Positions 10,162 to 62,879 of a stretch of DNA of 64,000 nucleotides are shown here, in pieces. The stretch comes from Cyanidioschyzon merolae (Eukaryota). Each line of letters begins with the position of its first letter. The first letter of the stretch is position 1. The stretch is from the NCBI GenBank assembly GCA_000091205.1, contig AP006500.2. One strand, 5' to 3'. Both the position numbers and the translations under genes were made by a program. The notes under the pieces were generated by a model, which was given only the letters and a program-made list of their open reading frames with translations, ran no database searches and had not been told where the DNA came from.

Positions 10162-11073
10162 TCAGCCCCACCATTGCATGTTGCCACCAGTGTAGTACTG
10201 CTGCTGCTGCTGCTGCTGCTGCCCTTTCTTAACTTGGGCGTACTGCTGCTTCTGTTGTTGTCCTTTCTGAAATTTGGCATACTGCTGCTTCTGTTGTTCT
10301 TGTTGCTGCTGCTGTTGCACGATCTGCGTAGCCTGTACCTGCTCTTGCTGAGCCTGTTGGCAAACCTGGACATTTTGATACTGCTGGCAAACCTGCTGGT
10401 ACCCTGTGCACTTCTGGCCGTACTGTGCGCATCCTTGCTCGTATTGCTCGCATTTGCCTTGTTGATACTGTGTGCACTTGTTCTCGTATTGCGCACACAC
10501 CTGTTCGGTTTGGTACTGCGTGGTATACTTCAGACACTTGTTCTTGTTCTGTTGGTACTTTGCGCACACCTGCTTGCAAACCGGCGTCTGCTGCCATCGG
10601 CGCATTGCGCCGTTCCATCCTTTCTTCTCCTGAACAGCCGCGGAAACCTGCTGCTTCTGAGGTGCTGGGGCAGGCGCAGGCTTCTGTGGTGCGACTTGTT
10701 GTTTTTGTTGCTGCTGCTGCTGCTGCTGCTGCTGAGCAACCGCCGATATTTGCTGCTGCTGCTGCTGCTGCTCGCAGCTAGAAGTGTATTCAACGCACTC
10801 CTGTGCATATTGTGCGCAGACCTGCACCGGCTTTTGCACAGTCTGGTACTGCACGCACTGCTGTTCCTGCTTCACGCACTCCTGCGCATACTGCTTGCAC
10901 TGCTGAATAGGCTGCAGGCATACCTTCTGATAACCAGTGCACTGGTTGCCATACTGAACACACTGCTGCTGCGTACTGCACTGTTGGTTCCAGGCAAACA
11001 CACCGGTTGTTACGGCACAGAAGGCCCAGACCAGAAGCACGACACGAGCAAAACTTGAATATCTAGACGACAT
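10162..11073 (-). CDS. Secreted cysteine-module Gln-rich protein, paralog B
   Basis: ATG at 11073 with signal peptide MSSRYSSFARVVLLVWAFCAVTTGVFA. An N-terminal Cys module (CSTQQQCVQYGNQCTGYQKVCLQPIQQCKQYAQECV...) is followed by polyQ runs and MRRW, then the second conserved 10-Cys module (CKQVCAKYQQNKNKC...GKCEQYEQGCAQYGQKCTGYQQVCQQYQNVQVC). The tail is Q-rich and ends in WWG. Confidence 0.7.
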   Translation of the reverse strand: MSSRYSSFARVVLLVWAFCAVTTGVFAWNQQCSTQQQCVQYGNQCTGYQKVCLQPIQQCKQYAQECVKQEQQCVQYQTVQKPVQVCAQYAQECVEYTSSCEQQQQQQQISAVAQQQQQQQQQQKQQVAPQKPAPAPAPQKQQVSAAVQEKKGWNGAMRRWQQTPVCKQVCAKYQQNKNKCLKYTTQYQTEQVCAQYENKCTQYQQGKCEQYEQGCAQYGQKCTGYQQVCQQYQNVQVCQQAQQEQVQATQIVQQQQQQEQQKQQYAKFQKGQQQKQQYAQVKKGQQQQQQQQYYTGGNMQWWG

Positions 11074-12764
11074 AATATGCTACCAATCTCTAGGAACGTT
11101 CTAAGGAACAAGACCAATAAAGTTTTTACTGTGACCATGCAATCCATCAGCCGGCAAGCCCATCACCCGGCCCCATGGGACACGTGAGCATAAGCCACAA
11201 ATCTGGCTGAACAGAGCCCAGACACGTTTCGCTTCCCCGCTCGATACGATTCTACAGGCCATCCAGACGCGATGCACCGGGAACCTGTGGCGCAGAGGCA
11301 CGCACAGAATGTCCGCATTGAGATCTCGGATCCTGTGACGGTGGTGGCGGGACGTGTCCGCGGCGCTTTCGGGTCCGTGTCCGTGTCCCGATTCATATCG
11401 AAGGGAAAAACAGCGCATCGCGTCGTGTCCCGGGCGTGCGGCGGACGCGACTCGTGAGTTTAGGGACAAAAATGGACATAAATAATCCGCGACCATAGGG
11501 TAAAAAATTTCTACCCACAGCTGGCCTCCAGGCTCTTTCGACTAGACCCCGGTATCGACTCAAGTTTCTCTCTCCACCCTCCAGCTTGCGAGGCTGTATC
11601 ACGAAATTAGATAGGAGGAGCCGCTCGGGTCTCGTACTGAGCACGGCACGTTGTCTGATAGTGATAGCGGCGTTGAAGTCTAGGTTCGCGAACTCCCTGC
11701 GTGGTTTGACGCTGGTCGAACCCACGTATACAAGGATTCCTCGAAGTGGTGCCCTTTGCGCCGCTACAGTCTCTTCATAGTCATGTCGCGCAAACTTTTT
11801 CCCGTCTATCTCACCTCTTCTACACCCGAGATCTGGGGGAGAAGAGGATTTATTGTTCTTTGTCGAACCCGGCGATGAAGGCCCTCTAGAATCCCCGAAT
11901 TCCATGTCCATGCAATCCTTTGGATTTTTCCTTCAACATAAACGAACCTCTATGCACTTAGGTGAGGACCTTCCCGGAGCGAGAAGGACTTGCAGTAGAA
12001 ACACGACATGTGCCTGGGTGTCTCCATGTGCTGAACGCCTGAGCGATTCACCCAGTGGAACGATCGTTACGTTTCACGATTGAAAATACTCGCTCGACGG
12101 AATTGAACCACTGGGAGCACGGAGGAAGGAGAAGCAGCCCTGCACCCCAATTGATTGGGAAAAAATCTCGAATGCAACGGGAATGGTGAAATACTAAGTT
12201 GTCTAACAGACCGACGTGTCCAAACGTCAGGGGAAAGTCTTCAATAGTTCGACAAAGTGATTGGTGCTGTTGTATGAGCCTTCTCTACGAACGAAATTGA
12301 GGCCGACAAATGAATCCGCTGCAGCTAGAATAGATGATAATGTAGTCGTTCTCTTCGAGTTCGATCATATATGCGATGAGCTCCCTCACCGCGAATATCC
12401 ATACATGCGCTGACCGTACCGTTCGAAAGAAGTCTCATCGGATCAAAAAACAAACCGACGTTTCAGTGCTTCTTACCGATCGAGACGTTCGGGGAACTCC
12501 GGGGTTGCGATTTCGATGGAAGATAACCGTGCGTGATGTAGGACTCGCTTCTAGCGACTGTATTCAAGTGTTCTCGGGGCCACACGAATAAGTTGTTGAG
12601 AGGCAGAGACGCCGGTGGCAGCCACTATCTTCGCTTTCGCCTTGCATAAGGTGATGAACAGGTCGCATTCTGCCATGGACCGCAAGCACGCTTTGAAAAC
12701 GTCAGTTTTGGGCGCGGAACGTATATACTTGTTTCTTTCTTTCATTATCCCTCAACAATCTGAG

Positions 12765-16676: not shown

Positions 16677-19120
16677 GATTAGCGTTCTCTGGTCTCAGGT
16701 TAACATTCGGGGCGCAGGCAGACTGTCGACAATTTACAAACGCTTCGAGACACCTCACCAGCGATCGCACAGAGCTCCTCTGTGCTCGATGCGGTGGCAG
16801 GTTTGAGCGTCTCGCATGTCTAGCGCGCATGCGAAGAACTGATGGCACGTGAGCGACGGCAGCAGCAGCAGCAGCATCCCTGATGATAAATTCCGAACAA
16901 GTCCGCGCGAATATCTGCACGAGTGGCAGAGAGGCTTTTCCTAGTCCGGCGATATCCTTAGCGGCTGCGATCATACGTTTTACTCTACGAGTCCTGTCGC
17001 GGTTCCTTTTGCAAAAGTCTCGTACACTTCGAGAAGCACGAGATGCCACTGCCTCGCGTCTGTGGCAGCAAACGCTGTGCAAAACGGCCGAGCCGCATGA
17101 TATGCTGCCAACCGAATCGCTCCGAGTTGTATATTGCGAGGATACGAGATCCAATGAAGTGGCTCTCGGAGTTTCCCGAGAACGACGCCGCAGCGACCGT
17201 GGCGCTGTGCACCTTTTTCTGAGTCACTGAGAAGGAGCGTTATGGCCTGGGCCTTGCAAGAAACACTCGCCCAAGCCAGCATGCTCCGAAGCGCCTGCGA
17301 GTCTTTGCGGTACTTTGGTAGGCATTCCGATCTGCAGAGCTGATCTCACGGCTTTCTGCGACCTCGATTGAGGATACCGCTGGCGGGATGCGCCATCCGA
17401 ACGACCCTGGGCCAAAAGCGAGCGTGCAGTTTTCAGAAGAAACTTCTAGGTCTCTAGTACGAAAATCCTCCCACGGAATGGACGAGCTCTATTAAGAGAC
17501 GCTGCAGCGAGCAAGCAGCAACGCCAGTGGGAGTCGCAGTTCCTGTAGGTACGAGACATACGCCTCAACACGCTCTCGGCTTGCAAGCGAGTTCTGTAAA
17601 CGGTACAGGAATGACATTGACATGGCCTCCGCAATCTGTATTCAATCTACTGGGAAGAGGCGCTCATGCTGGATATCTTTTCGCAATATCTCGGGTATGT
17701 AGGCGAATAGCATCATCTTTGCCAGTTGCGCGATAAATAATAACGCTTGCTTATGGGGTTTATGATCAATTTGCTGGGAAGACTCGTCGATGCGTTACTC
17801 ACAAGCCGATGGACGTGCGGACAACATGTTCGAATCATCGATCGTATACCCTGCAAAAGTAATATGTACCGTCTCCCGTGCTCATGGATGTAGGAAAATT
17901 AGTTTTGATATTCCGACACCGTCGCATGAAAAGCAGAATGATCCCCAATTGCGCAGCTGCAACTTTTTGTTCGACAGAAGGTTTACCTGGACCAGCTATC
18001 CCAGAATGGAGGATGGGTACTGGAAATCTAAAATGCGTTCATCATACTGCACCCTACCTTCGAGCTCTATTACCCATGCTTCCTCTTGGATGTACTGGTC
18101 TTTTTGTACTTTCTATCGTGCATCGATTGTCTGCTGTGAGCATCCGCAATAGCACCTATGCAATTGGTACGGATGTGACACAGAGACAGAGTGGCTTTGC
18201 TATACCACTGACAGCATCAGCTCGAGGAGTGCTGCGCTCGACACGGTGTCAAAGTACATAATCATTCTGGGAGCCCGCAGGCTGCGCAGACAGACCTGCT
18301 GTCTGCGGCAGCGCGAAGCGGTATTCTGGGAGATAACTGCAACAAGGGCGACGCATAGACACATTCTACCCGCTCCGAGTGACAGAATAAACTGCGTTGC
18401 GGACGAGTTGCGCAGATCTCACTATAGTGCCCGCCACTGGGAGGAGCATGAAGCGTATGCGGGGCAGATTCGTCCCGCTCGCGGGACCTTTCGCCAAGAA
18501 GGTAAACATTTGACGATATGGAGAGCTTTCCCCTTTTAATGTTTATCGTAGAGGGGGAATGGATTTTTTATATCGTTGGTAGTTCATGGTTAGTCTCTGT
18601 TCTTTTTTCTGTATGGAGCAGTCGATACAATCACCTCTATATCTGGCAGGCACGAGACAGGATGGGCATCTCGCCGTTGAAGCGAAACGCGTTCCTGAAG
18701 AGTATCATGTTGATCTAACAAGATGTATTTGCATTGAAGACGGAGCAATCTATAGTTCAGTCTAATTATGTTCCAACTTTCAAGTGAGTACATTCAAGTG
18801 ATTCTTCGCACTATGTAACGGAGGCGTTCGAAGAGCGTCCTTTTTCAAAAAAGACACTAAAACAGGAAAGTTATGGGAAAGCGAGTCGACGAGCCCTGAG
18901 GCCCAGTGTCGCCGGCTGCCTGAAAAAACAAAAAACAGTGCCGAGTCAAGAAGAAAAGGAAAAGAAAAAGAAGCGAAATGGAGAGGCCCTACGTCGAAGG
19001 CTGCAATAAAGACGACAGTGCGACGAAATCGTAGTAAAACCCTGTCTTCGTAGACATATCAAGGGTCCGCACAAGGAAAAGTCGCAAGACGCCATCAGAA
19101 TCCATATCGCGTCTTACTCC

Positions 19121-19786
19121 ATGAGTATTATAAAGGCGCCGTTAGGACTAATGCATTTGGAGAAGGATACGTGTCGCAACGTGACGGACATCAAAACAAT
19201 TGACGTTCTGGAAGAATTTTTCAACAAGACCTTCACCCGCCACCTGATGCTTGGCACCGGGGAAACGTCGAGTGGAAATGAGCGAGCGCATGCCCTCCAC
19301 GAAAATCACGCCGAATACCGCATCAGCGGTACTCGATCCAGGGGCGACTTGTGTATTGACACCTGCGGGGCAGTCAGGTACTTCACGAACCTAAAGATCC
19401 ATTTGACCGTGAAACTCGAATGCTTCACGATACGCGTCCTGTTTGCGCTGTACTCGGGCCTCTCGCGCACAGGAATATGGGTCATTATCGATGGCATCAC
19501 GAATGATCGCCAGCACGAACAGGAGACTGAGCTCGTCGAAGAGAAGATATCACACAGGAGAACGAATGAGGCTTCTGTCATCCGTGCGGCTATGCAAGAG
19601 CATCGTGCGGACTTGGTGCTCGCGCATCCAGCAGAAAAGGTATCAGATATGAAAAAAGATGAAGAAAGATGCTGTTCCCGAGCCCTGCGCTATTTTACGC
19701 TTTTGGGCCGGGATCTGGAACGCATGGCCGAAAAGCAGCTGAGTCGCGGAAAAATGAAGATTCGGAGGAATGGAAGGCTTTCCTAA
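19121..19786 (+). CDS. Conserved ORF1 of the duplicated module (221 aa, unknown function). It could be the N-terminal WED/REC-like part of the type-1 Fanzor-like gene.
   Basis: ATG-initiated ORF that is intact in both copies (37034..37699) with ~5 aa differences. No motif recognised. It lies immediately upstream of the RuvC-bearing frames and in the same orientation. Confidence 0.4.
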   Translation: MSIIKAPLGLMHLEKDTCRNVTDIKTIDVLEEFFNKTFTRHLMLGTGETSSGNERAHALHENHAEYRISGTRSRGDLCIDTCGAVRYFTNLKIHLTVKLECFTIRVLFALYSGLSRTGIWVIIDGITNDRQHEQETELVEEKISHRRTNEASVIRAAMQEHRADLVLAHPAEKVSDMKKDEERCCSRALRYFTLLGRDLERMAEKQLSRGKMKIRRNGRLS

Positions 19787-21200
19787 TGGGTACGCGCCTC
19801 AACGTCGTTCCGATATGCAGCGCCAACTCATATTTCGTGGCAGTCTGCTCCAGCGTCCCTCATGGCATCGTGAGGGATATCTGTCCGGAGTTCGATGCAG
19901 GCAAGAAGGAGTTCATGGGCCAAAACCGGGAAACTCATTGGAAGAATATCTTCGATTTCAAACGTCTCAATACGGGCAAGAAAGGGTATTCACGGGGACC
20001 ATCGGAAGCGATGGGGCAGCCATGTGTGTACATTACCGGCGGCTGGGGGCGGATCGTCCTATCGTGCCTTCGGCTTCGCCCTCGCCGAAGCATGAAGAAA
20101 AGAAGGAGGCAGATCCTGCGACTCAGGAGGTGCAGGATAACGAGCTTGTCGCTGGCTCGGCGAAGCATGAAGAAAACAACAAGGCGGATCCTGCGACACA
20201 GGAGGTGCAGGATAACGAGCTTGTCGCTGGCTCGGCGAAGCATGAAGAAAACAACAAGGCGGATCCTGCGACACAGGAGGTGCAGGATAACGAGCTTGTC
20301 GCTGGCTCGGCGAAGCATGAAGAAAACAACAAGGCAGATCCTGCGACTCAGAAAGTGCAGGATAACGAGCTTGTCGTTGGCACCGACCCGGGGAACACAA
20401 ATATCGTTACCATCGCTGCACCCAAGCGTGCGGAAGATGGTCCTGACGTTAGCTCACGTCAGAAAGACATGCTTCTTTTAAAGTTCTAAACATAGAAATA
20501 CCATCGAGAATCGGGAATACTGAATACGAGGAAGAAAATCGAGACGTGGAATGCCGCAGTGCAAGAGCATCTGGAAGCTTTGAGCGAGCTGACGAGCCGA
20601 GGAGCGGACTTTCAGGCTTCTCGGAAATCCATGAAAGTTCGTGTTGCTCATTGGGAGGCGCTGTGGGATGAGTATCCAAAGCCCCGGTGGGCTCGTCAGC
20701 GACTGATCTTGTGCTGTGGGAAACAGGGAGCGTTCGCCAACTTTTTCAATGCGTTCGGCGCCCTCAAAGAGGACGAGAGTCAGAGGCTCGCAATAGCGTA
20801 TGGAGCAGGGCGCTGGATGACCCAAAAAGGGTGTACACAGCTCCATCGACAAGAGCGTACAAGAAGTGTGCACATCGTTTTGTCACAATACCTATCGATG
20901 AGTTCCTAACGTCCTATATGCACCATGAGCTGGGGTGCACACTTCCGAGCGTCGAGACGGAAAAGCGTCAGCGGGGCCCTGAGGATATAGCAAAGTACGG
21001 AGCGCTGACAGAGCAGCAAGTAGAAAGTAGGGCGAAAGTTCCTGGGCTACGTGCACTGGTGCGTACAACCAGTGATGGCAAGAAACGTATAGCGTTTGTC
21101 AATCGTGACTCGAACGCCGCTATCAATACCAGGAGATGTACGGTGATGGAGACGAGACCCCCGGAGTTGATACGATCCAACTTTACGCGGCAGCCTCTCA
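19770..21200 (+). pseudogene. Type-1 TnpB/Fanzor-like RNA-guided-nuclease-family gene (OrfB_IS605 / OMEGA superfamily). It is frame-disrupted and probably a pseudogene.
   Basis: RuvC-I-like NELVVGTDPGNTNIVTIA at 20367-20414 (compare the TnpB GIDLG..n.ATLS motif). The frame then breaks (stop at 20489). Further downstream are ...AIAYGAGRW / VYTAPSTRAYKKCAHRF....MHHELGC (a YTSQ.C..C-like zinc-finger region, 20830-20950) and RuvC-III NRDSNAAIN at 21101-21127 (compare dRDvNAAiNI). These motifs lie in at least three frames. Confidence 0.55.
20082..20381 (+). repeat. 75-bp in-frame tandem repeat, 4 units, encoding AKHEENNKADPATQEVQDNELVAGS
   Basis: Units start at 20082, 20157, 20232 and 20307. The last unit runs into the RuvC-I motif, so the repeat duplicates the approach to GTDPG. 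Copy B (37995..38219) has only 3 units. Confidence 0.9.
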
Positions 21201-21364
21201 AGGTGAACTTACCCAGGGACAAGTTGGAACCAGTAGTAGGTGGCCGGTCCAAAAAGACCGGGAGGCGTCTGCACGTCAGCGTACCGACATCCACACTATC
21301 GGCGTCGTGTATATGCGTCGGTATACCTGTTTGGTCTGTGGTAGCTGAGAAGCATGGCCCGTGG

Positions 21365-21964
21365 ATGCCTTTTTCGAGTCGTTTCTTTCGGCAGCTGGTT
21401 CGCGGTGTCAGCTATGTGCCGGTCGTGTACGTTGTCCACGATCTTGTCGGTACGATTGTTCCCGTGAGGGGTGCGTCTATGCAACCAACCCTGAACCCAG
21501 GTGCGGCTGCAGGGGAGCTACCTCCCGGACAAGTTAGCGGCAGTCAGGATGTCGTGTTGGTTAGCCGGCTTCTCCGCGCTGTTTGGAACGTAAGGCGTGG
21601 GGATATCGTCGTTTTGCGGTCTCCCGACGCGGGACCGCAGAAGCGACTCGTGAAAAGGGTGGCCGCTCTAGAGGGGGATCGCGTTTACAACCACCGCACT
21701 GGGAAGTTTGTGGAGGTTCCACCTGGCCACTGCTGGCTCGTAGGTGACAACCGTACGGTGTCCCGTGACTCGGCTAGCCACTACGGGCCGGTTCCGCTGG
21801 GACTCCTCGAAGGACGCGCAGTGGCGGTTATCTGGCCACCACGTCGCTGGCAGGTGCTCGCGACGTCACCAAGCACAGGTTTGTGGCTCGACACTCGGAA
21901 CAGCGAGGGAGACCAACTGCCAGCCAAGAAGCAAGTGCTGGCCAAGTCGGCAACTACGAAGTGA
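21365..21964 (+). CDS. IMP1: Mitochondrial inner membrane protease subunit, an IMP1/IMP2-type S26 signal peptidase
   Basis: ATG at 21365. Motifs: VRGASMQPTL (GxSMxPTL nucleophile Ser), RGDIVVLRSP, KRVAALEGD, GHCWLVGDNRTVSRDSASHYGPVPLGL (GDN...S.DSR.YG box D/E). The protein is about 199 aa. Confidence 0.8.
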   Translation: MPFSSRFFRQLVRGVSYVPVVYVVHDLVGTIVPVRGASMQPTLNPGAAAGELPPGQVSGSQDVVLVSRLLRAVWNVRRGDIVVLRSPDAGPQKRLVKRVAALEGDRVYNHRTGKFVEVPPGHCWLVGDNRTVSRDSASHYGPVPLGLLEGRAVAVIWPPRRWQVLATSPSTGLWLDTRNSEGDQLPAKKQVLAKSATTK

Positions 21965-22199
21965 ATGGCTGTACGTCCGGATGGTGAGCAGAGAACGGCG
22001 CTATGGAGCAGCACCCATTTCAGAATACCATACAACGGATCCGCTCAGCGAACTCGGGCGTAGACGCTCAAGTCTGGACCGCTTCGCATTGTCATCTACA
22101 AGAGGTTTTGTGGGCGTTTTCTTCGAGTACGTCCTTTTCCTCGCTCTTGTCTCCGGTATTGTATACGTCGAACGATGCATGTTGTCTTGTTGGGTTGCC

Positions 22200-23813
22200 A
22201 GTAACCGAGGCATGTCGACGGCAGCGGTAGAGTCGCGGTATCGCCTCTTCGGGCAGTTGTGGACGCGTTTCATGCCCAGGCAAAAGTTGCCATCGATGGG
22301 TCCTCTGTATGTGTATGCAACGTCGGTGCTGCGTTTGCAGCGGTGACAAACTTGGGTGTGTTCCGGCGTTCCCATGCGTCCCCAACGTACGTTCTCCCTC
22401 TCGGAAGGGCGCTTTGTGGTACCTGTACGCCAGCTCCATCACCCACCATATGGTATCGACGGGTGCAGAGGGCTTGCCCCGAGATCGTCCTCCGTTTCGG
22501 CGCCTGGTGCCGTAAACTGCGATGACGGGCTCGTTCTGGTCGATCGCCTCGGCGAGCACCAGACGCGCTGCAAACACAAGTGCAAACGCCTCCTCTCGAT
22601 GACTCAACATGCGCTGGCTTGCGCGCTCTTCGCTCCCTGAGTACGCTTTTGGCGAAACATGGCGATGATCGTGACGAGCATCGCGTTGCCGTACCTACTC
22701 GTGGGCATTGTGTGTCCACGTGCTTCACTTGTGTGCGAGCGTGCAGTCACGGCTTCTGGGACTCGCTGCTGCTTCCGTCGCTTGCTTGCTGGACGGACGT
22801 TTTTCGCGTTCATTATCTTCCGCTGATACGAAGAGTACAGGCGCGCTGGCAGAATGCACGGCTGCTGGTCCAAGTCAAGTATGCGGGCACAAAACCCGAG
22901 CAGCCATAGCTTCGCCTGTTGCCACCAGGGGTATTGGGTCTCTGTTTGGGTAAAAGAGGAGCGCAGGTGCAGGGGTCCGCACTGCATGCTCCAGGCTGGT
23001 GCAGAGTGCATTGGAGAGCATCCTCGCGAGGCGATGCATTTGTACGGGTCGTTGCTCGTCTGCGTAGTAGCTCGTCTGTGCTGTATAGGTCGTTGCTTGT
23101 CTGCGTAGTAGCTCGTCTGGGCTGTACGGGTCGTTGCTTGTCTGCGTAGTTGCTCGTCTGGGCTGCACGGGTCGTTGCTCGTCTGCGTAGTAGCTCGTCT
23201 GGGCTGTACGGGTCGTTGCTGGTCTGCGCAGTAGCTCGTCTGGGCTGTACGGGTCGTTGCTGGTCTGCGCAGTAGCTCGTCTGGGCTGTATAGGTCATTG
23301 CTCCTCTTCGTAGTAGCTCGTCTGGGCTGTACGGGTCGTTGCTCGTCTGCATAGTAGCTCGTCTGGGCAGGGGTGCTTTTCAGCTCTGACGGTGTCATGA
23401 ATCGTATGGGAGGTTCGCTGTTGTCCTTGTTGATAATGGCGATATTGGCCGATACGCTTACGCAGTCGGTCTCGACGAAAGACGCAACCTCTCCTGGTCG
23501 TATTGCGAAGCTGGTATTCCCGCAGTTTTTCCTTCCCGCTTGCATCTATTGCTTGCGAGGCATGGTGTCGCCACTGCCGAGCGGTGTTTCCTCGATGACC
23601 GTGAAGAAAAGCGGATTCGACTTGAGCACCGAATCGATTATTTGACGTGACAAATCCAGTCGACTTTCGGAACGGGCCTGCGAACAAGGCATCAAGGGGT
23701 GACGTCGAGGCTGTCTGCTCGTCAACCCAACAGAGCGCATTGCTGCGTCCACGAGTTGCCCTGAATCGGAAAGATCGAAAACTTGAAGCATGTGAGATTC
23801 GGGTATGCCACAC
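22200..23813 (-). pseudogene. Type-2 TnpB/Fanzor-like gene relic, convergent with the type-1 gene. It carries frameshifts and a 41-bp repeat insertion.
   Basis: Minus-strand frames give RuvC-I-like ARILDLDQQP (~22875), RuvC-II-like LVLAEAIDQNEPVIAVYG (~22553), zinc finger TPEHTQVCHRC...FCLGMKRVHNC (22348-22260) and RuvC-III-like YRDSTAAVDM (22237-22211). These lie in three different frames. The tail is clearly homologous to copy X (29850-30083): TCRHCEW...FRLCMKRVDNRCKWLIRDFNAAAEVV. Confidence 0.45.
23035..23375. repeat. 41-bp tandem repeat (~8 units) inside the type-2 relic
   Basis: Unit gggtcgttgctcgtctgcgtagtagctcgtctgggctgtac. A 41-bp period is not a multiple of 3, so the minus-strand ORF shows a 41-aa periodicity (QRPVQPRRATTQTSNDPYSPDELLRRRATTRAAQTSNYADK). 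Copy B has fewer units (about 40860-41100). Confidence 0.85.
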
Positions 23814-25213
23814 ATAAGGAGAGAAGAAGCGAAGCAGCTTGCAAATATGAGTTGGATATCGATTTCTGTTTTTTTACGGACCCGTGTTCGGGGGTATCGC
23901 GAATCATTCTGACTCCGATGAAGGAACGCATTCCAGCGGTAAATCGTTCAAGGTAACGCTCCGAAAACACGACCAAGAATCCTAAAACTACGCGTGAACC
24001 CGTATGCCCATAGTGCTGCACTTGGAATCTTGATGCCGCAGATCCAGAGAAAAACGTTTGGATGTATCGCAAGCTAGGAAGAGCGCAAGCAGCTCAAAAC
24101 TCCATGATAACGTAATACGGTTCTAGAGACCTGCTCTGGGGCCGCGCTCCCATCCGCAGAGGCAGCGCACGAAAGCAACAGCACTAGCCAAAAAAATGAG
24201 CTCGAACGGGTTCACATATCGGCATACATTGCATTACCGATTTCGCATGGCGTGGAACTGGGGAGAGAGCATCCCAATATGGAAACGTACTCAGCCGGGC
24301 ACGCGTCTGCATCCGCAGCATATGCGCAGGTCCCGTGAAAGGACCACCTGCGGCGCCGTGCGGCCCGCGCTGCACCAGGCCAGCTTCTCTGACAGCCTAA
24401 ACAGCGCCAATGCTCCCGTGACCTGGACTACGCTCAAGGTCTAGCTCCGCAGCAAACGACGTACCTGCTGTCGCTCGCCGCCCTGAACTAAACGCACGCA
24501 CGCGTACGCGTCCTCGAGTTGGGCGCTTCACGAAAGCGACCCGAGCAGCCGCAGGCTGCAAAACGTGCTCCCTTGTTGCCTAGCGCTTTCTCACGAGAAT
24601 AACCTCGAACCGGTACGCCTTCGAAGCAAAGAAAAGCGCCTGCGAGCTCGACCTCGTATGCAGCCTATAAACGAGGCTCCTGGGGTGCTCGTTATCGAGC
24701 TTCAGTGCACGCATCGATACAGCCCCCGCCACGTTTCCCACCGAACAAAGCACCGTGATCTCTGTTGCATCGTCATGCACCAGTCACGTATCAACCTCTG
24801 CGAAAAGCAAGCTCGATGCATACAACCAACAACAACCGTACGCATCAGCAAGCAAGCATCGAAGCAGATGGCAACAAACAGTGCCCTTGGCGCGTGCTGC
24901 TGCCTCCTTCGGGAGATTGTTTTCGGACAACGCAGCAGCGATCGCGCGCGCGCGCCTCGAAGGCCATCAGCTGCAATTCGACGCTGCCTCGAAAGTGTGC
25001 GTTCGATCCGCACTACGGCGGCGCGAGCTGTCACGACTCCGGTGACCCCCAGCGAACAGTTCGCATCGAGATAGAAGTCGAAGTTTGCAACGTGGCAGTG
25101 CCAGCTTGCGCTATAGCATGGCCCCGGAGGAGGCGCCAGTCCAATGCTTCCAAAGCAATTTGTGTTTGGACTTGTTCTAGCTCGAACAACATCTGTAATC
25201 CGATTGTATCTCA

Positions 25214-27091
25214 TTGAAAGCCATGAACATGAGGCTGCTCTATCTGGCCGCTATTGTAGTGGTCCTGGCGGCGACGCTGCTGCAAAGTGCGGCCGCCATG
25301 GACTACTATCAGAAGGATATGAAACAGAAGAAGCAGTGCTACACAGTCGAGAAGTGTGTGAAGCAGGAGCGCAAATGTATCCAATATGAGAAGGTTTGCA
25401 CGCAGCCGCAGAAGAAGTGCATCCAGCACGAACTTATCTGTGTGCAGCAAGAGAACCAGTGCAAGCAGTACGAGCCCGAATACCAGAATGTTAAAGTCTG
25501 TGTTGCGTACGAGAAAGAATGCGTGCAATGGAACTATAAGGATGAGTGCCAGCAGGAGTACGTCCAACAGAACAATTACTTCTGGGGCATGAGATGGTCC
25601 AATGAGAAGAAGAAGGAGCCTGTCAAGAAACAGTGCAAGAAAGTTCAGAACGGCTGCGCACAGTGGCAGGAGAACAAGAACAAGTGCGCACAGTATGGCG
25701 AACAACAACAGAAGATCGGACAAAAGTGCTCCGACTATGTCCAGGTGTGCACGAAGACGAAACCCGGGAAATGCATCCAGTATCAGGAGACCTGCAACAA
25801 CTATCAGCAGCAGTGTGCACAATGGGCTAACGTGTGCCAGCAGTACAAGAAGGAGATCGTCTGTCCTGAACCCAAGAAGGAGCCGCAGAAGAAAGTTAAG
25901 CAAGAGCAGTACGTGAAGAAGGACAACTACGTGTGGCGAATGTACGATCAAAAGAAAAAGTATGATCAGAAAAACGTAGAGCAGCAACAGAAGAATGAAT
26001 GGTTCCAGCAGCAGAATGAGAAGAAGCAGTACTATTGGCAGCCACAGAAGACCCAGTACTACAAGAAGAATGATTACAAGAAGAATGTTTACAACGACCA
26101 GAAACAGTACTACTGGGAGCCACAGAAGACCCAGTACTACAAGAAGAATGATTACAAGAAGAATGTTTACAACGACCAGAAACAGTACTACTGGGAGCCG
26201 CAGAAGACCCAGTACTACAAGAAGAATGACTACAAGAAGAATGTTTACAACGATCAGAAGCAGTACTACTGGGAGCCGCAGAAGACCCAGTACTACAAGA
26301 AGAATGACTACTACCAAAAGAAGGACAACTACGTGTGGCGAATGTACGATCAAAAGAAAAAGTATGATCAGAAAAACGTAGAGCAGCAACAGAAGAATGA
26401 ATGGTTCCAGCAGCAGAATGAGAAGAAGCAGTACTATTGGCAGCCACAGAAGACCCAGTACTACAAGAAGAATGATTACAAGCAGAATGTTTACAACGAC
26501 CAGAAACAGTACTACTGGGAGCCGCAGAAGACCCAGTACTACAAGAAGAATGACTACAAGAAGAATGTTTACAACGACCAGAAACAGTACTACTGGGAGC
26601 CGCAGAAGACCCAGTACTACAAGAAGAATGACTACAAGAAGAATGTTTACAACGATCAGAAGCAGTACTACTGGGAGCCGCAGAAGACCCAGTACTACAA
26701 GAAGAATGACTACTACCAAAAGAAGGACAACTACGTGTGGCGAATGTACGATCAAAAGAAAAAGTATGATCAGAAAAACGTAGAGCAGCAACAGAAGAAT
26801 GAATGGTTCCAGCAGCAGAATGAGAAGAAGCAGTACTATTGGCAGCCACAGAAGACCCAGTACTACAAGAAGAATGACTACAAGAAGAACGTTTACAACG
26901 ACCAGAAACAGTACTACTGGGAGCCGCAGAAGACCCAGTACTACAAGAAAAATGACTACAAGAAGAATGTTTACAACGACCAGAAACAGTACTACTGGGA
27001 GCCGCAGAAGACCCAGTACTACAAGAAGAATTACAATCTATACGGAAAGAAAGAAAATCCATACGTTCCGCAGTATTACTACTGGGAGTGA
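25214..27091 (+). CDS. Secreted cysteine-module Gln/Lys/Tyr-rich repeat protein, paralog C (625 aa)
   Basis: ATG at 25214 with signal peptide MKAMNMRLLYLAAIVVVLAATLLQSAAA. An N-terminal Cys module is followed by WNYKDECQQ, MRW and CKKVQNGCAQWQENKNKC...GKCIQYQETCNNYQQQCAQWANVCQQYKKEIVC. After that come 2.9 copies of a 134-aa repeat rich in K/Q/Y/N/W. Confidence 0.75.
   Translation: MKAMNMRLLYLAAIVVVLAATLLQSAAAMDYYQKDMKQKKQCYTVEKCVKQERKCIQYEKVCTQPQKKCIQHELICVQQENQCKQYEPEYQNVKVCVAYEKECVQWNYKDECQQEYVQQNNYFWGMRWSNEKKKEPVKKQCKKVQNGCAQWQENKNKCAQYGEQQQKIGQKCSDYVQVCTKTKPGKCIQYQETCNNYQQQCAQWANVCQQYKKEIVCPEPKKEPQKKVKQEQYVKKDNYVWRMYDQKKKYDQKNVEQQQKNEWFQQQNEKKQYYWQPQKTQYYKKNDYKKNVYNDQKQYYWEPQKTQYYKKNDYKKNVYNDQKQYYWEPQKTQYYKKNDYKKNVYNDQKQYYWEPQKTQYYKKNDYYQKKDNYVWRMYDQKKKYDQKNVEQQQKNEWFQQQNEKKQYYWQPQKTQYYKKNDYKQNVYNDQKQYYWEPQKTQYYKKNDYKKNVYNDQKQYYWEPQKTQYYKKNDYKKNVYNDQKQYYWEPQKTQYYKKNDYYQKKDNYVWRMYDQKKKYDQKNVEQQQKNEWFQQQNEKKQYYWQPQKTQYYKKNDYKKNVYNDQKQYYWEPQKTQYYKKNDYKKNVYNDQKQYYWEPQKTQYYKKNYNLYGKKENPYVPQYYYWE
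25916..27088 (+). repeat. 402-bp coding tandem repeat (2.9 copies), each unit containing four 78-bp subrepeats
   Basis: Units start at 25916, 26318 and 26720. The subrepeat encodes KQYYWEPQKTQYYKKNDYKKNVYNDQ (26 aa). Confidence 0.9.
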
Positions 27092-28203: not shown

Positions 28204-29133
28204 ATGATCAAGAAAACTGTTTTGTGTTTTGCAGTAGCGCTGGTGCTTTGCATCGTAGCACCGATGAAGGGTGCGCAGGCCTGGTACAACACCGTAGCAC
28301 AGCAGGAGCAGTGCTATCAGAAGCAGGTGTGCACTCAGTATGACAACCAGTGCACAGGATATAGCAACGTATGTTTGCAGTGGGGCGAGCAGTGCAAGCA
28401 ATACGAGCAGGTGTGCACAAGCTGGGAAACCAAGTGCCTTGCCTATGAGGATGTTTACAAGACCACTCAGGTCTGCGCCCAGTACGCCCAGACGTGCGCA
28501 CAGTGGAACTACAAGGAGGACTGCCAACAGGTCAAGCAGGAGCAGAAGCAATACTATACTGCCGTGGAGACGCCAGTTGCAAAACAGGACTACAAGAAGA
28601 AGCAAGACTATGTCAAGAAGCAGGAGGATCAGCAGAAGAAGGACCAGTACATCTGGGGCCAAAACGGCTGGCGCTGGTACAACCAGGAGCAGCAGCAGAA
28701 GCAGCAGGTTCAGGTGAAGAAGGTCATCGAGACTCCGATCGCCACCCAGACCTGCAAGAAGGTGCAAGCTGGATGTGCTCGCTGGCAGCAGGACACCTCC
28801 AAGTGCGAGCAGTGGACTACAAACAAACAGAAGATCGGCGTTCGGTGCGCAAACAGCGCTCAGGTATGCTCCAACTACACACAGGGCAAGTGCGCTCAGA
28901 GCGAGCAGGTCTGCCTGAGTTATGGCCAGAAATGCACGGGCTACCAGCAAGTGTGCAAGTCGTACGGCTGGCAATGGGTCTGCCAGCAGGTTCAGGCCAC
29001 TGAACAGTACCAGCAGAAGCAGGTTTACGGCCAGAAGGAAGTATACGGCCAGCAACAGAAGCAAAAGTACCAGAAGGACCAAAAGCAGTACCAGGATCAG
29101 CAGAACTACTGGCAGAAGCAGTACATGTGGTGA
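28204..29133 (+). CDS. Secreted cysteine-module Gln/Lys/Tyr-rich protein, paralog D
   Basis: ATG at 28204 with signal peptide MIKKTVLCFAVALVLCIVAPMKGAQA. Modules: CYQKQVCTQYDNQCTGYSNVCLQWGEQCKQYEQVCTSWETKC, WNYKEDCQQ, WRW and CKKVQAGCARWQQDTSKC...GKCAQSEQVCLSYGQKCTGYQQVCKSYGWQWVC. The tail is Q/Y/K-rich and ends QYMW. Confidence 0.75.
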   Translation: MIKKTVLCFAVALVLCIVAPMKGAQAWYNTVAQQEQCYQKQVCTQYDNQCTGYSNVCLQWGEQCKQYEQVCTSWETKCLAYEDVYKTTQVCAQYAQTCAQWNYKEDCQQVKQEQKQYYTAVETPVAKQDYKKKQDYVKKQEDQQKKDQYIWGQNGWRWYNQEQQQKQQVQVKKVIETPIATQTCKKVQAGCARWQQDTSKCEQWTTNKQKIGVRCANSAQVCSNYTQGKCAQSEQVCLSYGQKCTGYQQVCKSYGWQWVCQQVQATEQYQQKQVYGQKEVYGQQQKQKYQKDQKQYQDQQNYWQKQYMW

Positions 29134-36640: not shown

Positions 36641-37033
36641 TTTTCGTTAACTTCATAGCCAAGCACAGTTTTTCAGTTCATTTGTGTTTCACACCTCAAC
36701 TAAAAAATTCGATTGATATTTCGCAGTATATAACGGAGGCTTTCGAATAGCGTGCTTTTTCGAAAAAGACGCTAAAAAAGGAAAGTTATGGGAAAGCGAG
36801 TCGACGAGCCTTGAGGCCCAGTGTCGCCGGCTGCCTGAAAAACAAAAAACAGTGCCGAGTCAAGAAGAAAAGAAAAGAAAAAGAAGCAAAAGGGAGAGGC
36901 CCTACGTCGAAGGCTGCAATAAAGACGACAGTGCGACGAAATCGTAGTAAAACCCTGTCTTCGTAGACATATCAAGGGTCCGCACAAGGAAAAGTCGCAA
37001 GACGCCATCAGAATCCATATCGCGTCTTACTCC

Positions 37034-37699: not shown

Positions 37700-39038
37700 T
37701 GGGTACGCGCTTCAACGTCGTTCCGATATGCAGCATCAACTCACATTTCGTGGCAGTCTGCTCCAGCGTCCCTCATGGCATCATGAGGGATATCTGTCAG
37801 GAGTTCGATGCAGGCAAGAAGGAGTTCATGGGCCAAAACCGGGAAACTCATTGGAAGAATATCTTCGATTTCAAACGTCTCAATACGGGCAAGAAAGGGT
37901 ATTCACGGGGACCATCGGAAGCGATGGGGCAGCCATGTGTGTCCACTACCGGCGGCTGAGGGCGGATCGACCTATCGTGCCTTCGGCTTCGCCCTCGCCG
38001 AAGCATGAAGAAAAGAAGGAGGCAGATCCTGCGACACAGGAGGTGCAGGATAACGAGCTTGTCGTTGGCTCGGCGAAGCATGAAGAAAACAACAAGGTAG
38101 ATCCTGCGACTCAGAAAGTGCAGGATAACGAGCTTGTCGTTGGCTCGGCGAAGCATGAAGAAAACAACAAGGCAGATCCTGCGACACAGGAGGTGCAGGA
38201 TAACGAGCTTGTCGTTGGCACCGACCCGGGGAACACAAATATCGTTACCATCGCTGTACCCAAGCGTGCGGAAGATGGTCCTGACGTTAGCTCACGTCAG
38301 AAAGACATGCTTCTTTTAAAGTTCTAAACATAGAAATACCATCGAGAATCGGGAATACTGAATACGAGGAAGAAAATCGAGACGTGGAATGCCGGAGTGC
38401 AAGAGCATCTGGAAGCTTTGAGCGAGCTGACGAGCCGAGGAGCGGACTTTCAGGCTTTTCGGAAATCCATGAAAGTTCGTGTTGCTCATTGGGAGGCGCT
38501 GTGGGAGGAGTATCCAAAGCCCCGGTGGGCTCGTCAGCGACTGATCTTGTGTTGTGGGAAATAGGGAGCGTTCGCCAACTTTTTCAATGCGTTCGGCGCC
38601 CTCAAAGAGGACGAGAGTCAGAGGCTCGCAATAGCGTATGGAGCAGGGCGCTGGATGACCCAAAAAGGGTGTACACAGCTCCATCGACAAGAGCGTACAA
38701 GAAGTGTGCACATCGTTTTGTCACAATACCTATAGATGAGTTCCTAACGTCCTATATGCACCATGAGCTGGGGTGCACACTTCCGAGCGTCGAGACGGAA
38801 AAGCGTCAGCGGGGCCCTGAGGATATAGCAAAGTACGGAGCGCTGACAGAGCAGCAAGTAGAAAGTAGGGCGAAAGTTCCTGGGCTACGTGCACTGGTGC
38901 GTACAACCAGTGATGGCAAGAAACGTATAGCGTTTGTCAATCGTGACTCGAACGCCGCTATCAATACCAGGAGATGTACGGTGATGGAGACGAGACCCCC
39001 GGAGTTGATACGATCCAACTTTACGGGGCAGCCTCTCA
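37683..39038 (+). pseudogene. Type-1 TnpB/Fanzor-like pseudogene, copy B
   Basis: RuvC-I-like LVVGTDPGNTNIVTIA at 38205-38252. The zinc finger and NRDSNAAIN (38939-38965) are in the frame of ORF 38384..39802. The same frame disruptions as copy A are present, plus one extra stop. Confidence 0.55.
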
Positions 39039-39202
39039 AGGTGGACTTACCCAGGGACAAGTTGGAACCAGTAGTAGGTGGCCGGTCCAAAAAGACCGGG
39101 AGGCGTCTGCACGTCAGCGTACCGACATCCACACTATCGGCGTCGTGTATATGCGTCGGTATACCTGTTTTGTCTGTGGTAGCTGAGAAGCATGGCCCGT
39201 GG

Positions 39203-39802
39203 ATGACTTTTTCGAGTCGTTTCTTTCGGCAGCTGATTCGCGGTGTCAGCTATGTGCCGGTCGTGTACGTTGTCCACGATCTTGTCGGTACGATTGTTCC
39301 CGTGAGGGGTGCGTCTATGCAACCAACCCTGAACCCAGGTGCGGCTGCAGGGGAGCTACCTCCCGGACAAGTTAGCGGCAGTCAGGATGTCGTGTTGGTT
39401 AGCCGGCTTCTCCGCGCTGTTTGGAACGTAAGGCGTGGGGATATCGTCGTTTTGCGGTCTCCCGACGCGGGACCGCAGAAGCGACTCGTGAAAAGGGTGG
39501 CCGCTCTAGAGGGGGATCGCGTTTACAACCACCGCACTGGGAAGTTTGTGGAGGTTCCACCTGGCCACTGCTGGCTCGTAGGTGACAACCGTACGGTGTC
39601 CCGTGACTCGGCTAGCCACTACGGGCCGGTTCCGCTGGGACTCCTCGAAGGACGCGCAGTGGCGGTTATCTGGCCACCACGTCGCTGGCAGGTGCTCGCG
39701 ACGTCACCAAGCACAGGTTTGTGGCTCGACACTCGGAACAGCGAGGGAGACCAACTGCCAGCCAAGAAGCAAGTGCTGGCCAAGTCGGCAACTACGAAGT
39801 GA
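39203..39802 (+). CDS. IMP1: IMP1/IMP2-type S26 mitochondrial inner membrane peptidase, paralog B
   Basis: ATG at 39203. All catalytic boxes match copy A. There are 2 aa differences (P/T, V/I) in the N-terminal segment. Confidence 0.8.
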   Translation: MTFSSRFFRQLIRGVSYVPVVYVVHDLVGTIVPVRGASMQPTLNPGAAAGELPPGQVSGSQDVVLVSRLLRAVWNVRRGDIVVLRSPDAGPQKRLVKRVAALEGDRVYNHRTGKFVEVPPGHCWLVGDNRTVSRDSASHYGPVPLGLLEGRAVAVIWPPRRWQVLATSPSTGLWLDTRNSEGDQLPAKKQVLAKSATTK

Positions 39803-40037
39803 ATGGCTGAACGTCCGGATGGTGAGCAGAGAACGGCGCTATGGAGCAGCACCCATTTCAGAATACCATACAACGGATCCGCTCAGCGAACTCGGGCGTA
39901 GACGCTCAAGTCTGGACCGCTTCGCATTGTCATCTACAAGAGGTTTTGTGGGCGTTTTCTTCGAGTACGTCCTTTTCCTCGCTCTTGTCTCCGGTATTGT
40001 ATACGTCGAACGATGCATGTTTTCTTGTTGGGTTGCC

Positions 40038-62620: not shown

Positions 62621-62879
62621 GTCGCAGCTCACGTTTCTGAGAAACCGGTACAACCTTTGAGGCGACGGGAAACTATTCTCGAGTCCAAAGTGCGAACAGA
62701 GGTCGTCGACTCGCCGAACAGATCGTGTTGCAGAAAAAGGTCACCGTGCGCCGAGAACAAACGCCTTTCAAAAGAGAAACGTTGTCGTCGCCAGCGGTGT
62801 AATGGCGGCGAACAGCGTCCTAGACAAAACGTCTCCATCTGACGTGCAGACGCCTCCCAGTTTTTTTCCATTGACAAAG

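Follow-up and report, generated by a model that had tools for sequence, protein, structure and literature searches.

The CMe-1A family of Fanzor1 elements is already known from Cyanidioschyzon merolae (Bao & Jurka 2013, PMC3627910) and is identical to the 3.2-kb interspersed repeat with a WSV486-like truncated ORF described from this organism by Nozaki et al. 2007 (PMC1955436); the latter study reports the repeat family as transcribed. In published accounts the repeats are called ‘randomly distributed’ and no target site is given. The Fanzor1 proteins of Parasitella parasitica (PDB 9cf0-9cf3) and Guillardia theta (9cer-9cet) have been characterised experimentally, and both are matched by a profile of the CMe-1A family. 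A transposon remnant directly 5' of a coding sequence is also familiar from TE exonisation, TE promoters and host-TE chimeras (e.g. P-element, mPing in 5' gene ends). The host gene of interest here, IMP2, is predicted to encode subunit 2 of the mitochondrial inner membrane peptidase, an S26 family protein comparable to Imp2/IMMP2L (MEROPS S26).

The analysed window comprises 64,000 nucleotides of C. merolae 10D, from the 1.25-Mb chromosome with CMR3xx locus tags, and all positions given below refer to it. An ORF of 425 aa (20687..21964, + strand) reads without interruption from a TnpB-like RuvC-III motif into an S26 peptidase, and the arrangement in a duplicate ORF (38384..39802, peptidase ATG at 39203) is identical. 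Both observations agree with an earlier note on this DNA, which had put the stop-free run from the zinc-finger region and RDSNAAIN to the peptidase methionine at about 75 codons; from NRDSNAAIN to the ATG at 21365 the actual run is 79 codons. Behind the RuvC-III motif the ORF divides into three parts, namely 51 Fanzor1 codons, a linker of 28 codons, and IMP2. The features of the locus are:

18385..21280, + strand: CMe-1A Fanzor1 copy 1, a 3'-truncated pseudogene (DNA homology, tblastn, right-end HMM)
18792..24184, no strand: segmental duplication unit of 5.4 kb, partner at 36707-41915, 97-98% identity overall
20081..20380, + strand: 75-nt tandem repeats within the Fanzor ORF (AKHEENNKADPATQEVQDNELVAGS units)
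20385..20387, + strand: RuvC-I aspartate codon (GTDPGNTNI), GxDPGxxN being conserved in alignments A3 and A5
20487..20495, + strand: in-frame stops TAA (20487) and TAG (20493), at the site of S-R-A in other family members, in both duplicates
20837, + strand: 1-nt deletion in the Fanzor ORF, frame 0 to 2, polymorphic
20900..20902, + strand: RuvC-II glutamate codon (IDEFLTS), DEFRTS being conserved in A3 and A5 and aligning to Parasitella Fanzor1
21101..21127, + strand: RuvC-III motif NRDSNAAIN, aligning to nRDqaAvlN of PDB 9cf0
21128..21280, + strand: 51 genuine Fanzor1 C-terminal codons (TRRCTVMETRPPELIRSNF...GGRSKKTGRRLHVS), by homology to family C-termini
21281..21364, + strand: linker of 84 nt, 28 stop-free codons, found at IMP2 loci only and without other homology
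21365..21964, + strand: IMP2 copy 1, 199 aa, an exact match to the annotated protein BAM82534.1 / XP_005538570.1
36549..39118, + strand: CMe-1A Fanzor1 copy 2, with stops, frameshifts and 3' truncation as in copy 1
39119..39202, + strand: linker copy 2, one substitution relative to copy 1
39203..39802, + strand: IMP2 copy 2, 199 aa, BAM82540.1 / XP_005538576.1

Around the junction the copies share about 99.5% identity, with 6 differing positions across 20900-22000. Because both belong to one recent 5.4-kb duplication and show only these 6 differences, copy 2 does not count as independent evidence. The duplication is not present at the syntenic loci of Cyanidiococcus, each of which has one IMP2. 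The junction frame was open in all nine haplotypes examined, a count of little power since these haplotypes differ by at most about 1%.

Membership of the family in Fanzor1 is assigned by its similarity to the experimentally characterised proteins. A wide profile (A5, the family plus 25 full-length relatives) matched the Fanzor1 of Parasitella (9cf0, E=3.1e-19) and that of Guillardia (9cer, E=8e-4); the narrow family profile (A3) found no real match in the PDB, and the wider one was required. An AlphaFold2 model from A3 (14 sequences; pLDDT 34.4, pTM 0.23) was too poor for a fold comparison. The match to 9cf0 falls into two stretches and includes GxDPG, DEFRTS, NRDxxAxxN and the C-terminal RPPxxSRE. 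Unlike the solved Fanzor1 proteins, the CMe family lacks the canonical CxxC...CxxC finger, carries an additional C-terminal tail of ~30 residues (…LKVELYEKKLEAVVGGRSKKTGRRLHVSWRRFV) and contains 25-aa internal tandem repeats; the window copies, moreover, are dead genes. Searches of the family proteins against Pfam and NCBIfam up to E<=10 returned nothing beyond a trace of PF07282 in one member (E=0.67), and among the A5 members scanned the best PF07282 match had E=5.6e-5 (4/28). The C4 zinc finger of the Bao & Jurka pattern and of PF07282 is replaced in the family by HH-x3-C-x9-C, and in the window copy the last Cys is an Arg (...EKRQRG). What had been labelled ‘ZnF’ in the frame is not a canonical C4 finger in this family.

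With the published CMe-1A elements the window copies share the organism, the size of ~3 kb, the absence of terminal inverted repeats, a TnpB-like ORF with the RuvC D/E/D residues, and membership in a set of many decayed copies that are ~70-80% identical. They differ from them in lacking the last ~77 aligned positions (stop and right end) and in reading into host DNA. DNA homology of copy 1 to a paralogous element (locus L003) extends from 18385 to 21278 at 72-78% identity, and related repeat sequence possibly begins at ~17960, where some family matches start. The ORF at 19121-19786 (frame 2) reads into the family N-terminus of copy 1, and from ~19730 onward the tblastn matches of family proteins change frame in the order 1->0->2. 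The number of 75-nt repeats is unequal between the two duplicates, and like units occur in the family proteins P0003 and P0011. The catalytic triad D...E...D is present in order, in GTDPG (D 20385), IDEFLTS (E 20900) and NRDSNAAIN (D 21107), the third motif likewise being conserved in A3 and A5. Nevertheless both window copies are pseudogenes and neither retains the intact ORF of an active nuclease: in each, two in-frame stops are accompanied by at least three frameshifts, and the reading frame changes near 19740, 19985 and 20837. At 20837 the frame is restored by an extra C in three metagenomic haplotypes. Introns were rejected as an explanation of these shifts in frame, since TAA and TAG stand in the place of conserved residues and 20837 is a 1-nt polymorphic indel.

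The translation of 21128-21280 is 65-72% identical to the C-termini of the family proteins P0002-P0015, and its RPPxLxR part is a conserved element of Fanzor1 proteins, 9cf0 among them. Because this stretch is native, conserved Fanzor1 C-terminal coding sequence, 51 of the 79 codons are open by descent. P0002-P0015 end in ...HVSWRRFV*, 5-6 codons beyond the point equivalent to 21280, and only the 28 codons of the linker lie beyond the normal stop position of the family. In intact relatives the common motif GGAGGCGTCTGCACGTCA is followed by a TAG stop and by a conserved non-coding right end of ~85 nt, which was seen in ~40 independent family copies. The right-end HMM matches both IMP2-linked copies at positions 3-220 of 297 only; in copy 1 this match ends at 21280 and DNA homology at 21278. 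Positions 221-297, i.e. the element's own stop and the right end as candidate omega-RNA scaffold, are missing from both.

The linker has no homologue outside the IMP2 loci and none in the right-end HMM. A diverged right end was rejected as its source because the HMM does not extend past 21280, and so was an internal segment of the element brought there by rearrangement, for which only a 12-nt match to the VHYRRL coding region with dissimilar flanks was found. The probability that 84 nt are free of stops is 0.31 in linker shuffles and 0.51 when the 84 nt are taken from anywhere in the window; multiplied by 1/3 for the right phase, the chance of a 28-codon linker of this kind is roughly 10-17%. 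Other annotated ATGs in the window are preceded by 2-141 stop-free in-frame codons. The codon log-likelihood ratio of the linker (-0.108 per codon) corresponds to the 3.4th percentile of true coding windows, with no frame preferred, a codon usage of non-coding type. Among haplotypes, variable sites per 100 nt are four times as frequent in the linker as in the IMP2 CDS (4.8 vs 1.2), and all four linker variants fall on codon positions 1 or 2 and are replacement-type in the putative frame. This contrast is weakened because, of 7 sites that are polymorphic in the IMP2 CDS, 5 vary non-synonymously, and constraint on the duplicates may be relaxed. The linker also contains two out-of-frame ATGs (21313, 21354). 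One of them, 11 nt before the IMP2 ATG, stands in good context (AGCATGG) and the context of the IMP2 ATG itself is weak, from which it would follow that the 5' UTR is very short or leaky; for a simple model this is slightly odd. Most likely, the linker is the non-coding 5' flank or 5' UTR of IMP2.

In the 199-aa peptidase, PF10502 (Peptidase_S26) scores 67.6 bits (Pfam's curated cut-off 22.9 bits; E=1.7e-18); residue 15 pairs with position 9 of the profile, and the S26 domain begins at about residue 7-15. Met1 aligns across 12 orthologues from Cyanidiococcus to animals and fungi, in all of which 31-43 residues precede GASMQPTLNP. Ser38, Lys97 and Arg98 fall into invariant columns of this alignment (A6), and an N-terminal signal-anchor lies at the annotated start. 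IMP2 of C. merolae shares with Imp2/IMMP2L the PF10502 domain, the SMQPT serine motif 38 residues from Met1, the KRV lysine motif and the GDN...S.DS box, and at 199 aa it is within the family range of 160-220 aa. Gene order is conserved in Cyanidiococcus (loci L128-L132: CMR324C-like, IMP2, repeat protein, CMR328C-like, Rft1). At these loci IMP2 is preceded by a plain intergenic gap of 0.9-1.15 kb in which neither Fanzor nor right-end sequence was found, and in-frame stops occur 9 and 1 codons upstream of its ATG. Orthologues in related genomes do, then, lack the upstream segment, a point that had been raised as a check. Unlike Cyanidiococcus with its single gene, C. merolae has two tandemly dispersed IMP2 copies, each with a transposon pseudogene before it.

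We consider it highly probable that a decayed CMe-1A frame is merely by coincidence in phase with IMP2, which starts at its own ATG behind a non-coding linker. In the lineage of C. merolae, a CMe-1A Fanzor1 would have entered the intergenic DNA just upstream of IMP2, in the same orientation, and would then have decayed through the gain of two stop codons and of three or more frameshifts. The element presumably also lost its last ~77 aligned positions, with its own stop (...HVSWRRFV*) and the ~85-nt right end where an omega-RNA scaffold would be sited. The truncated Fanzor frame would since adjoin 84 nt of unique DNA that is by chance stop-free and in phase with the ATG at 21365; the frame reads through because the transposon's own stop codon was lost and the phase happens to fit. 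Later, the 5.4-kb block of pseudogene, IMP2 and downstream DNA would have been duplicated, and the junction would be present twice because the whole block was duplicated after the junction had formed. This order of insertion, decay and duplication is the one that we infer. Translation of IMP2 from its own ATG would give the canonical signal-anchored S26 peptidase of 199 aa, with the linker remaining non-coding. A chance open frame had been the fallback in the earlier note and is the best supported reading here, with the refinement that two thirds of the supposed ‘tail’ are real Fanzor1 coding sequence.

Compatible with this reading at the protein level, and with a probability that we put somewhat short of even, is a start of IMP2 transcription inside Fanzor DNA. 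In that case a putative core promoter and/or 5' leader would be provided by the element's decayed 3' end, with translation still from 21365. Such a TE promoter or 5' UTR is plausible because only 84 nt of non-TE DNA separate the element from the ATG. The ancestral gap in sister genera measures 0.9-1.15 kb, and the DNA that formerly lay upstream is today separated from the gene by more than 3 kb. Across the family, the median distance from a right end to the same-strand host ATG downstream of it is 98 nt, which leaves scant room for an independent promoter, and essential genes are among those preceded in this way (ATP synthase beta, 92 nt; kinesin, 21 nt); transcription of the repeat family has been reported, as cited above. 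Against a start within the element, its leader would include the out-of-frame uATGs in the linker, the IMP2-linked copies have CTTACCCAG in place of the TATA-like CTATATGAG that the family conserves ~150 nt ahead of the right end, and 84 nt could in principle fit a compact core promoter and a short UTR. Logan contigs with the peptidase gene begin at duplicate-variable sites and extend >1 kb past the stop, and are uninformative on transcript ends; a search of the accessible literature for transcription-start or UTR maps of C. merolae found nothing usable.

The earlier suggestion of a chimeric protein, or of a functional N-terminal extension of the peptidase, is not supported by our data. Such a protein would start at one of the in-frame ATGs inside the Fanzor remnant, at 21146 (73 codons before IMP2) or at 20918 (149 codons), and the conceptual peptides of 21146-21364 in the open frame include METRPPELIR..., LEPVVGGR, VPTSTLSASC... 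and HVSVPTSTLSASC.... The frame is indeed open in both copies and in 9/9 haplotypes, and gene prediction of the prokaryotic type yields a product of 433 aa in JGI metagenomes. Yet the IMP2 Met1 is conserved in eukaryotes with the signal-anchor directly behind it, orthologues without Fanzor have stops 1-9 codons before the ATG, the linker is non-coding-like with replacement-type changes, and the reference annotation gives 199 aa. In a chimera, moreover, the membrane anchor would sit behind 73-149 residues of nuclease debris. The locus resembles host-TE chimeras in that the remnant lies in the same orientation and in one uninterrupted frame with the gene. It is unlike them in that the evidence speaks against translation of the TE sequence, and promoter donation is only putative; coding constraint was not detected, and the extension is neither common to orthologues nor required by the domain. 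We regard a fusion protein as very unlikely, and the chance that the peptidase carries this N-terminal extension as slight. The practical warning is that in several metagenomes annotated by JGI, longest-ORF callers have made of this junction an ‘inner membrane protease subunit 2’ of 433 aa.

The idea that the junction encodes a Fanzor omega-RNA had the position right, as the conserved non-coding right end of intact members follows the common motif and stop exactly there, but the segment itself is gone here. A terminal hairpin can be drawn by eye in each of two right-end subfamilies, and such hairpins are possible in the right ends of individual copies; even so, intact right ends fold weakly (RNAalifold on 39 right ends: consensus -4.5 kcal/mol, essentially no covariation; mean MFE z -0.5). 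With HMM positions 221-297 missing, a linker that has no homologue elsewhere and folds no more stably than its shuffles (z=+0.75), a cognate nuclease that is a pseudogene, and no match to Rfam (gathering thresholds) over the whole window, a still functional omega-RNA with the IMP2 5' end as guide is hardly conceivable. ARAGORN, too, found nothing in the window.

The IMP2 junction, as a known transposon family beside a correctly annotated gene, is in itself of little importance. Independently of it, a position ~0-250 nt before a host start codon, in head-to-tail arrangement, is much commoner among CMe-1A right ends than expected by chance. The nearest downstream gene is on the same strand for 27 of 36 right ends, and in 17 of the 36 a host ATG of the same strand lies no more than 120 nt away, compared with 5.6% of random intergenic positions; the median distance to the ATG for such random positions is 725 nt, as against the 98 nt given above. 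This clustering differs from the random distribution in published accounts, and a literature search for reports of a Fanzor insertion preference near promoters found none. It is tempting, if rather doubtful, to see a family-wide rule of insertion or retention ~0-250 nt upstream of ATGs, with IMP2 as a decayed example. Either a promoter or 5' leader for the downstream gene would come from the element's 3' part, because there is little room for a host promoter, or nucleosome-free 5' gene ends would be targeted in an orientation-specific manner. If true, both promoter supply and 5'-end targeting would tie the Fanzor family to host gene expression, and a genome-wide confirmation of the pattern against mapped transcription starts would bear on Fanzor target choice and on whether such elements serve as mobile promoters in a eukaryote whose genome is very compact. 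The window itself holds one further case:

62759..62870, - strand: solo right end of CMe-1A (HMM 188-297), in the same orientation as SURF4 and 138 nt before its annotated start codon (62620)

In the window, a 425-aa open reading frame (20687..21964, plus strand) carries the motif NRDSNAAIN (21101-21127) and then runs through 79 stop-free codons into the ATG at 21365 of an S26 peptidase, which matches Pfam PF10502 with 67.6 bits (profile position 9 corresponding to residue 15 from this Met). A second copy shows a like arrangement (ORF 38384..39802, peptidase ATG 39203). The stop-free run described in the earlier note (about 75 codons, in both copies) is thus confirmed; since both copies lie within one segmental duplication, however, it constitutes one observation and not two. 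The copies differ at only 6 positions within 20900-22000. The duplicated block comprises the Fanzor pseudogene, the peptidase gene IMP2 and ~2.2 kb of downstream DNA. Beyond its upstream boundary each copy still resembles the element family, yet the copies are unlike each other.

Features of the window (coordinates, strand where assigned, description)
18792-24184 and 36707-41915: segmental duplication, 5.4 kb, 97-98% identical overall
20081-20380 and 37919-38293: 75-nt tandem repeats, also in family proteins P0003 and P0011; copy number varies between the window copies and among relatives
11525-11848 (-) and 57598-57969 (-): two more diverged Fanzor1 fragments, 30-47% aa identity to family proteins
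62759-62870 (-): solo right end (element 3' terminus) in the reference genome, 138 nt 5' of the annotated SURF4 ATG
25223-27088 (+), 28204-29130 (+) and about 10162-11073 (-): secreted-looking, Q/Y/K/C-rich repeat-protein family
23007-23470 and 40861-41201: 41-nt tandem repeats, GGTCGTTGCTCGTCTGCGTAGTAGCTCGTCTGGGCTGTACG-like, 3' of IMP2 within the duplicated block

Searches with the 425-aa ORF recovered near-identical 433-aa chimeric ORFs from JGI metagenomes and 14 clusters of TnpB-like proteins with 65-72% identity to its upstream part. The C-termini of these relatives read ...NRDFNAAINIRRCAVLExRPPELTRENFxGQPLKVELYEKKLEAVVGGRSKKTGRRLHVSWRRFV*, which identifies TRRCTVMETRPPELIRSNFTRQPLKVNLPRDKLEPVVGGRSKKTGRRLHVS (21128-21280, 51 codons) as native C-terminal coding sequence of the family. 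An exhaustive HMMER search (E<=0.001) yielded 1180 representatives, many of them 600-700 aa long, and a profile of 28 of these matched the solved Fanzor1 structures of Parasitella (9cf0, E=3e-19) and Guillardia (9cer, E=8e-4) in an alignment that takes in DEFRTS, NRDxxAxxN and the terminal RPPxxSRE. The upstream sequence belongs to CMe-1A, a Fanzor1 family for which Bao & Jurka reported about 150 copies, a length of about 3 kb and no terminal inverted repeats (PMC3627910). CMe-1A corresponds to the 3.2-kb interspersed repeat of Nozaki et al., for which 253 copies, a WSV486-like ORF, transcription and a 'randomly distributed' occurrence were reported (PMC1955436). The two additional fragments within 64 kb indicate that the repeat is densely scattered. 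The zinc finger previously read in this frame is not a canonical one: in both the narrow (A3) and the wider (A5) family alignment the C4 finger (CxxC...CxxC) between RuvC-II and RuvC-III is absent, and HH-x3-C-x9-C stands in its place (window about 20915-20975). Long intact ORFs persist in some copies despite the missing canonical finger. Directly 5' of the RuvC-I motif, the family ORF contains the 75-nt (25-aa) repeats, …KHEENNKADPATQEVQDNELV….

Both window Fanzor copies are dead genes, as evident from TAA 20487 and TAG 20493 in place of conserved residues and from three frame changes near 19740, 19985 and 20837, all of which are common to both duplicates. The shift at 20837 comes from a 1-nt indel for which natural populations are polymorphic; in three metagenomic haplotypes (L118, L046, L012) an extra C restores the frame, so that 489 codons run without interruption to the stop codon of the peptidase.

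At the DNA level, homology to the paralogous element L003 ends at 21278. Metagenomes were scanned with the 18-mer GGAGGCGTCTGCACGTCA, which the copies have in common; in the 119 loci identified, the family continues with ..GTTGGAGACGTTTTGTCTAG, including its own stop, followed by a ~85-nt conserved non-coding right end terminating in ...GAAAGGCGTT(T/C)G, beyond which the flanks are unique. To an HMM of this 3' region (297 positions) the IMP2-linked copies align at positions 3-220 only (21063-21280 and 38901-39118), and hence they lack the stop codon and the entire right end. Apart from a chance 12-mer, the linker between remnant and ATG (84 nt, 21281-21364) had no other occurrence in 123 loci and the window. 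The family 3' consensus (columns ~150-170, ~150 nt before the right end) contains a strongly conserved TATA-like CTATATGAGAAAAAG, where IMP2-linked copies have CTTACCCAGGGACAAG (window 21205-21225); as the stretch codes ELYEKK, its conservation may simply reflect coding constraint.

With 51 codons accounted for by the native Fanzor C-terminus, only 28 are left to explain. A shuffled linker is stop-free in the given frame in 31% of cases, as is any 84-nt stretch of the GC-rich window in 51%, and other annotated genes in the window have 2-141 stop-free in-frame codons 5' of their ATG. Including the 1/3 phase match, the probability of a chance coincidence is about 0.10-0.17. In the Fanzor/IMP2 frame the linker has non-coding-like codon usage (-0.108 bits per codon, the 3.4th percentile among true coding windows of 28 codons read in frame); it resembles off-frame sequence and favours no frame. 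The earlier note had proposed a check of this kind for 21130-21360. Variable sites were counted across nine haplotypes, seven from metagenome contigs plus both window copies: their density per 100 nt is 4.8 in the linker, 1.8 in the Fanzor part and 1.2 in the IMP2 CDS. Each of the four linker variants affects codon position 1 or 2. That the frame runs on into IMP2 is a coincidence produced by 3' truncation; the note had itself named a chance open frame as the alternative.

A search with the 199-aa peptidase recovered two IMP2 orthologues: that of Cyanidiococcus yangmingshanensis has 198 aa and 57% identity, that of a second relative 199 aa and 61% identity. The relatives' loci are syntenic with the window (CMR324C-like, IMP2, Q/Y/K-repeat protein, CMR328C-like, and Rft1 on the opposite strand) and hold a single IMP2 behind a plain intergenic gap of 0.9-1.15 kb; across 20 kb neither Fanzor nor right-end sequence was found. 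Insertion and duplication are therefore specific to the C. merolae lineage, which owes its two IMP2 genes to the duplication.

From the observed anatomy and comparisons we infer the order of events. In the best-supported account, a CMe-1A element would have inserted immediately 5' of IMP2, oriented like the gene, and decayed; a deletion would then have taken its stop and right end and joined the Fanzor frame to a unique 84-nt stretch, probably the 5' flank of IMP2, stop-free and in phase by chance; and the block would have been duplicated afterwards. On this account IMP2 is translated from its own ATG.

Transcription of IMP2 could plausibly start inside the Fanzor remnant, given that non-TE DNA accounts for no more than the last 84 nt before the ATG, but such a leader would be burdened by out-of-frame ATGs at 21313 and 21354. 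The latter (21354-21356) has a strong context (AGCATGG) 11 nt 5' of the IMP2 start codon, whose own context is weak (GTGGATGC), which implies that the 5' UTR is very short or that scanning is leaky. As to an omega-RNA, the position holds, since the right end belongs there; the content does not, the would-be coding segment being missing from both copies. The linker itself folds no better than shuffles (z=+0.75), and a search for conserved structure in intact right ends demonstrated none. A chimeric protein or N-terminal extension is disfavoured by the relatives' in-frame stops 9 and 1 codons 5' of the ATG and by the alignment of IMP2 from 12 sources (red and green algae, animals, fungi, Thecamonas), in which C. 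merolae Met1 aligns with Met1 of every other protein and the catalytic GASMQPTLNP follows after 31-43 residues; nothing 5' of 21365 is thus required for, or common to, IMP2.

That Met is the annotated start of both 199-aa peptidases (BAM82534.1, BAM82540.1; 'similar to inner mitochondrial membrane peptidase Imp2p'). Eight proteins of the window have exact matches in C. merolae 10D, where they map to the 1,253,087-bp chromosome with the CMR3xx locus tags. The C. merolae genome is nearly free of introns, consistent with the long single-exon ORFs of the neighbours (PSME4-like, Rft1, SURF4, threonine synthase). Prokaryotic-style gene calling of JGI metagenomes (contigs L001, L002 and others; proteins P0001, P0023-P0032) has turned the continuous frame into a 433-aa 'inner membrane protease subunit 2'. 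This Fanzor-remnant and IMP2 fusion is an annotation artefact, and now represents the 90% cluster holding the true 199-aa protein.

The IMP2 junction (21280/39118, plus strand) fits a wider pattern. The sample comprised 38 right ends from metagenome contigs L005-L123, non-redundant and each flanked by 600 nt or more. Of the nearest downstream long ORFs, 27 share the strand of the right end and 9 lie on the other strand (binomial p=0.004). A same-strand ATG occurs within 120 nt of 17/36 right ends versus 5.6% of random intergenic, element-masked positions on the same contigs (p~1e-12), and the median distance to the ATG is 98 nt versus 725 nt (Mann-Whitney p=2e-8). Gene calling here relied solely on long ORFs. 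Several Cyanidiophyceae are represented in the metagenomes that supplied the loci, and an insertion shared by orthology between diverged lineages may enter the counts repeatedly. By sequence the downstream ORFs are host-like (kinesin, ATP synthase beta, glycerol-3-phosphate dehydrogenase, topoisomerase III, branched-chain aminotransferase, inositol monophosphatase, Pth2, SURF4). In contrast to the published random distribution of CMe-1A (PMC1955436), right ends here lie head-to-tail just 5' of host start codons, which may reflect survivorship or target preference, the two being inseparable in these data. All components are already known (the CMe-1A repeat from 2007 and 2013, IMP2 with its current annotation); only this orientation-biased clustering is potentially new.

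The Q/Y/K/C-rich repeat proteins, annotated as hypothetical, are built from …QYYWEPQKTQYYKKNDYKKNVYND… units of 78 and 246 nt and have no Pfam matches in precomputed annotations; Cyanidiococcus possesses syntenic orthologues and several paralogues. The 41-nt repeats overlap a 313-aa minus-strand ORF of doubtful reality.
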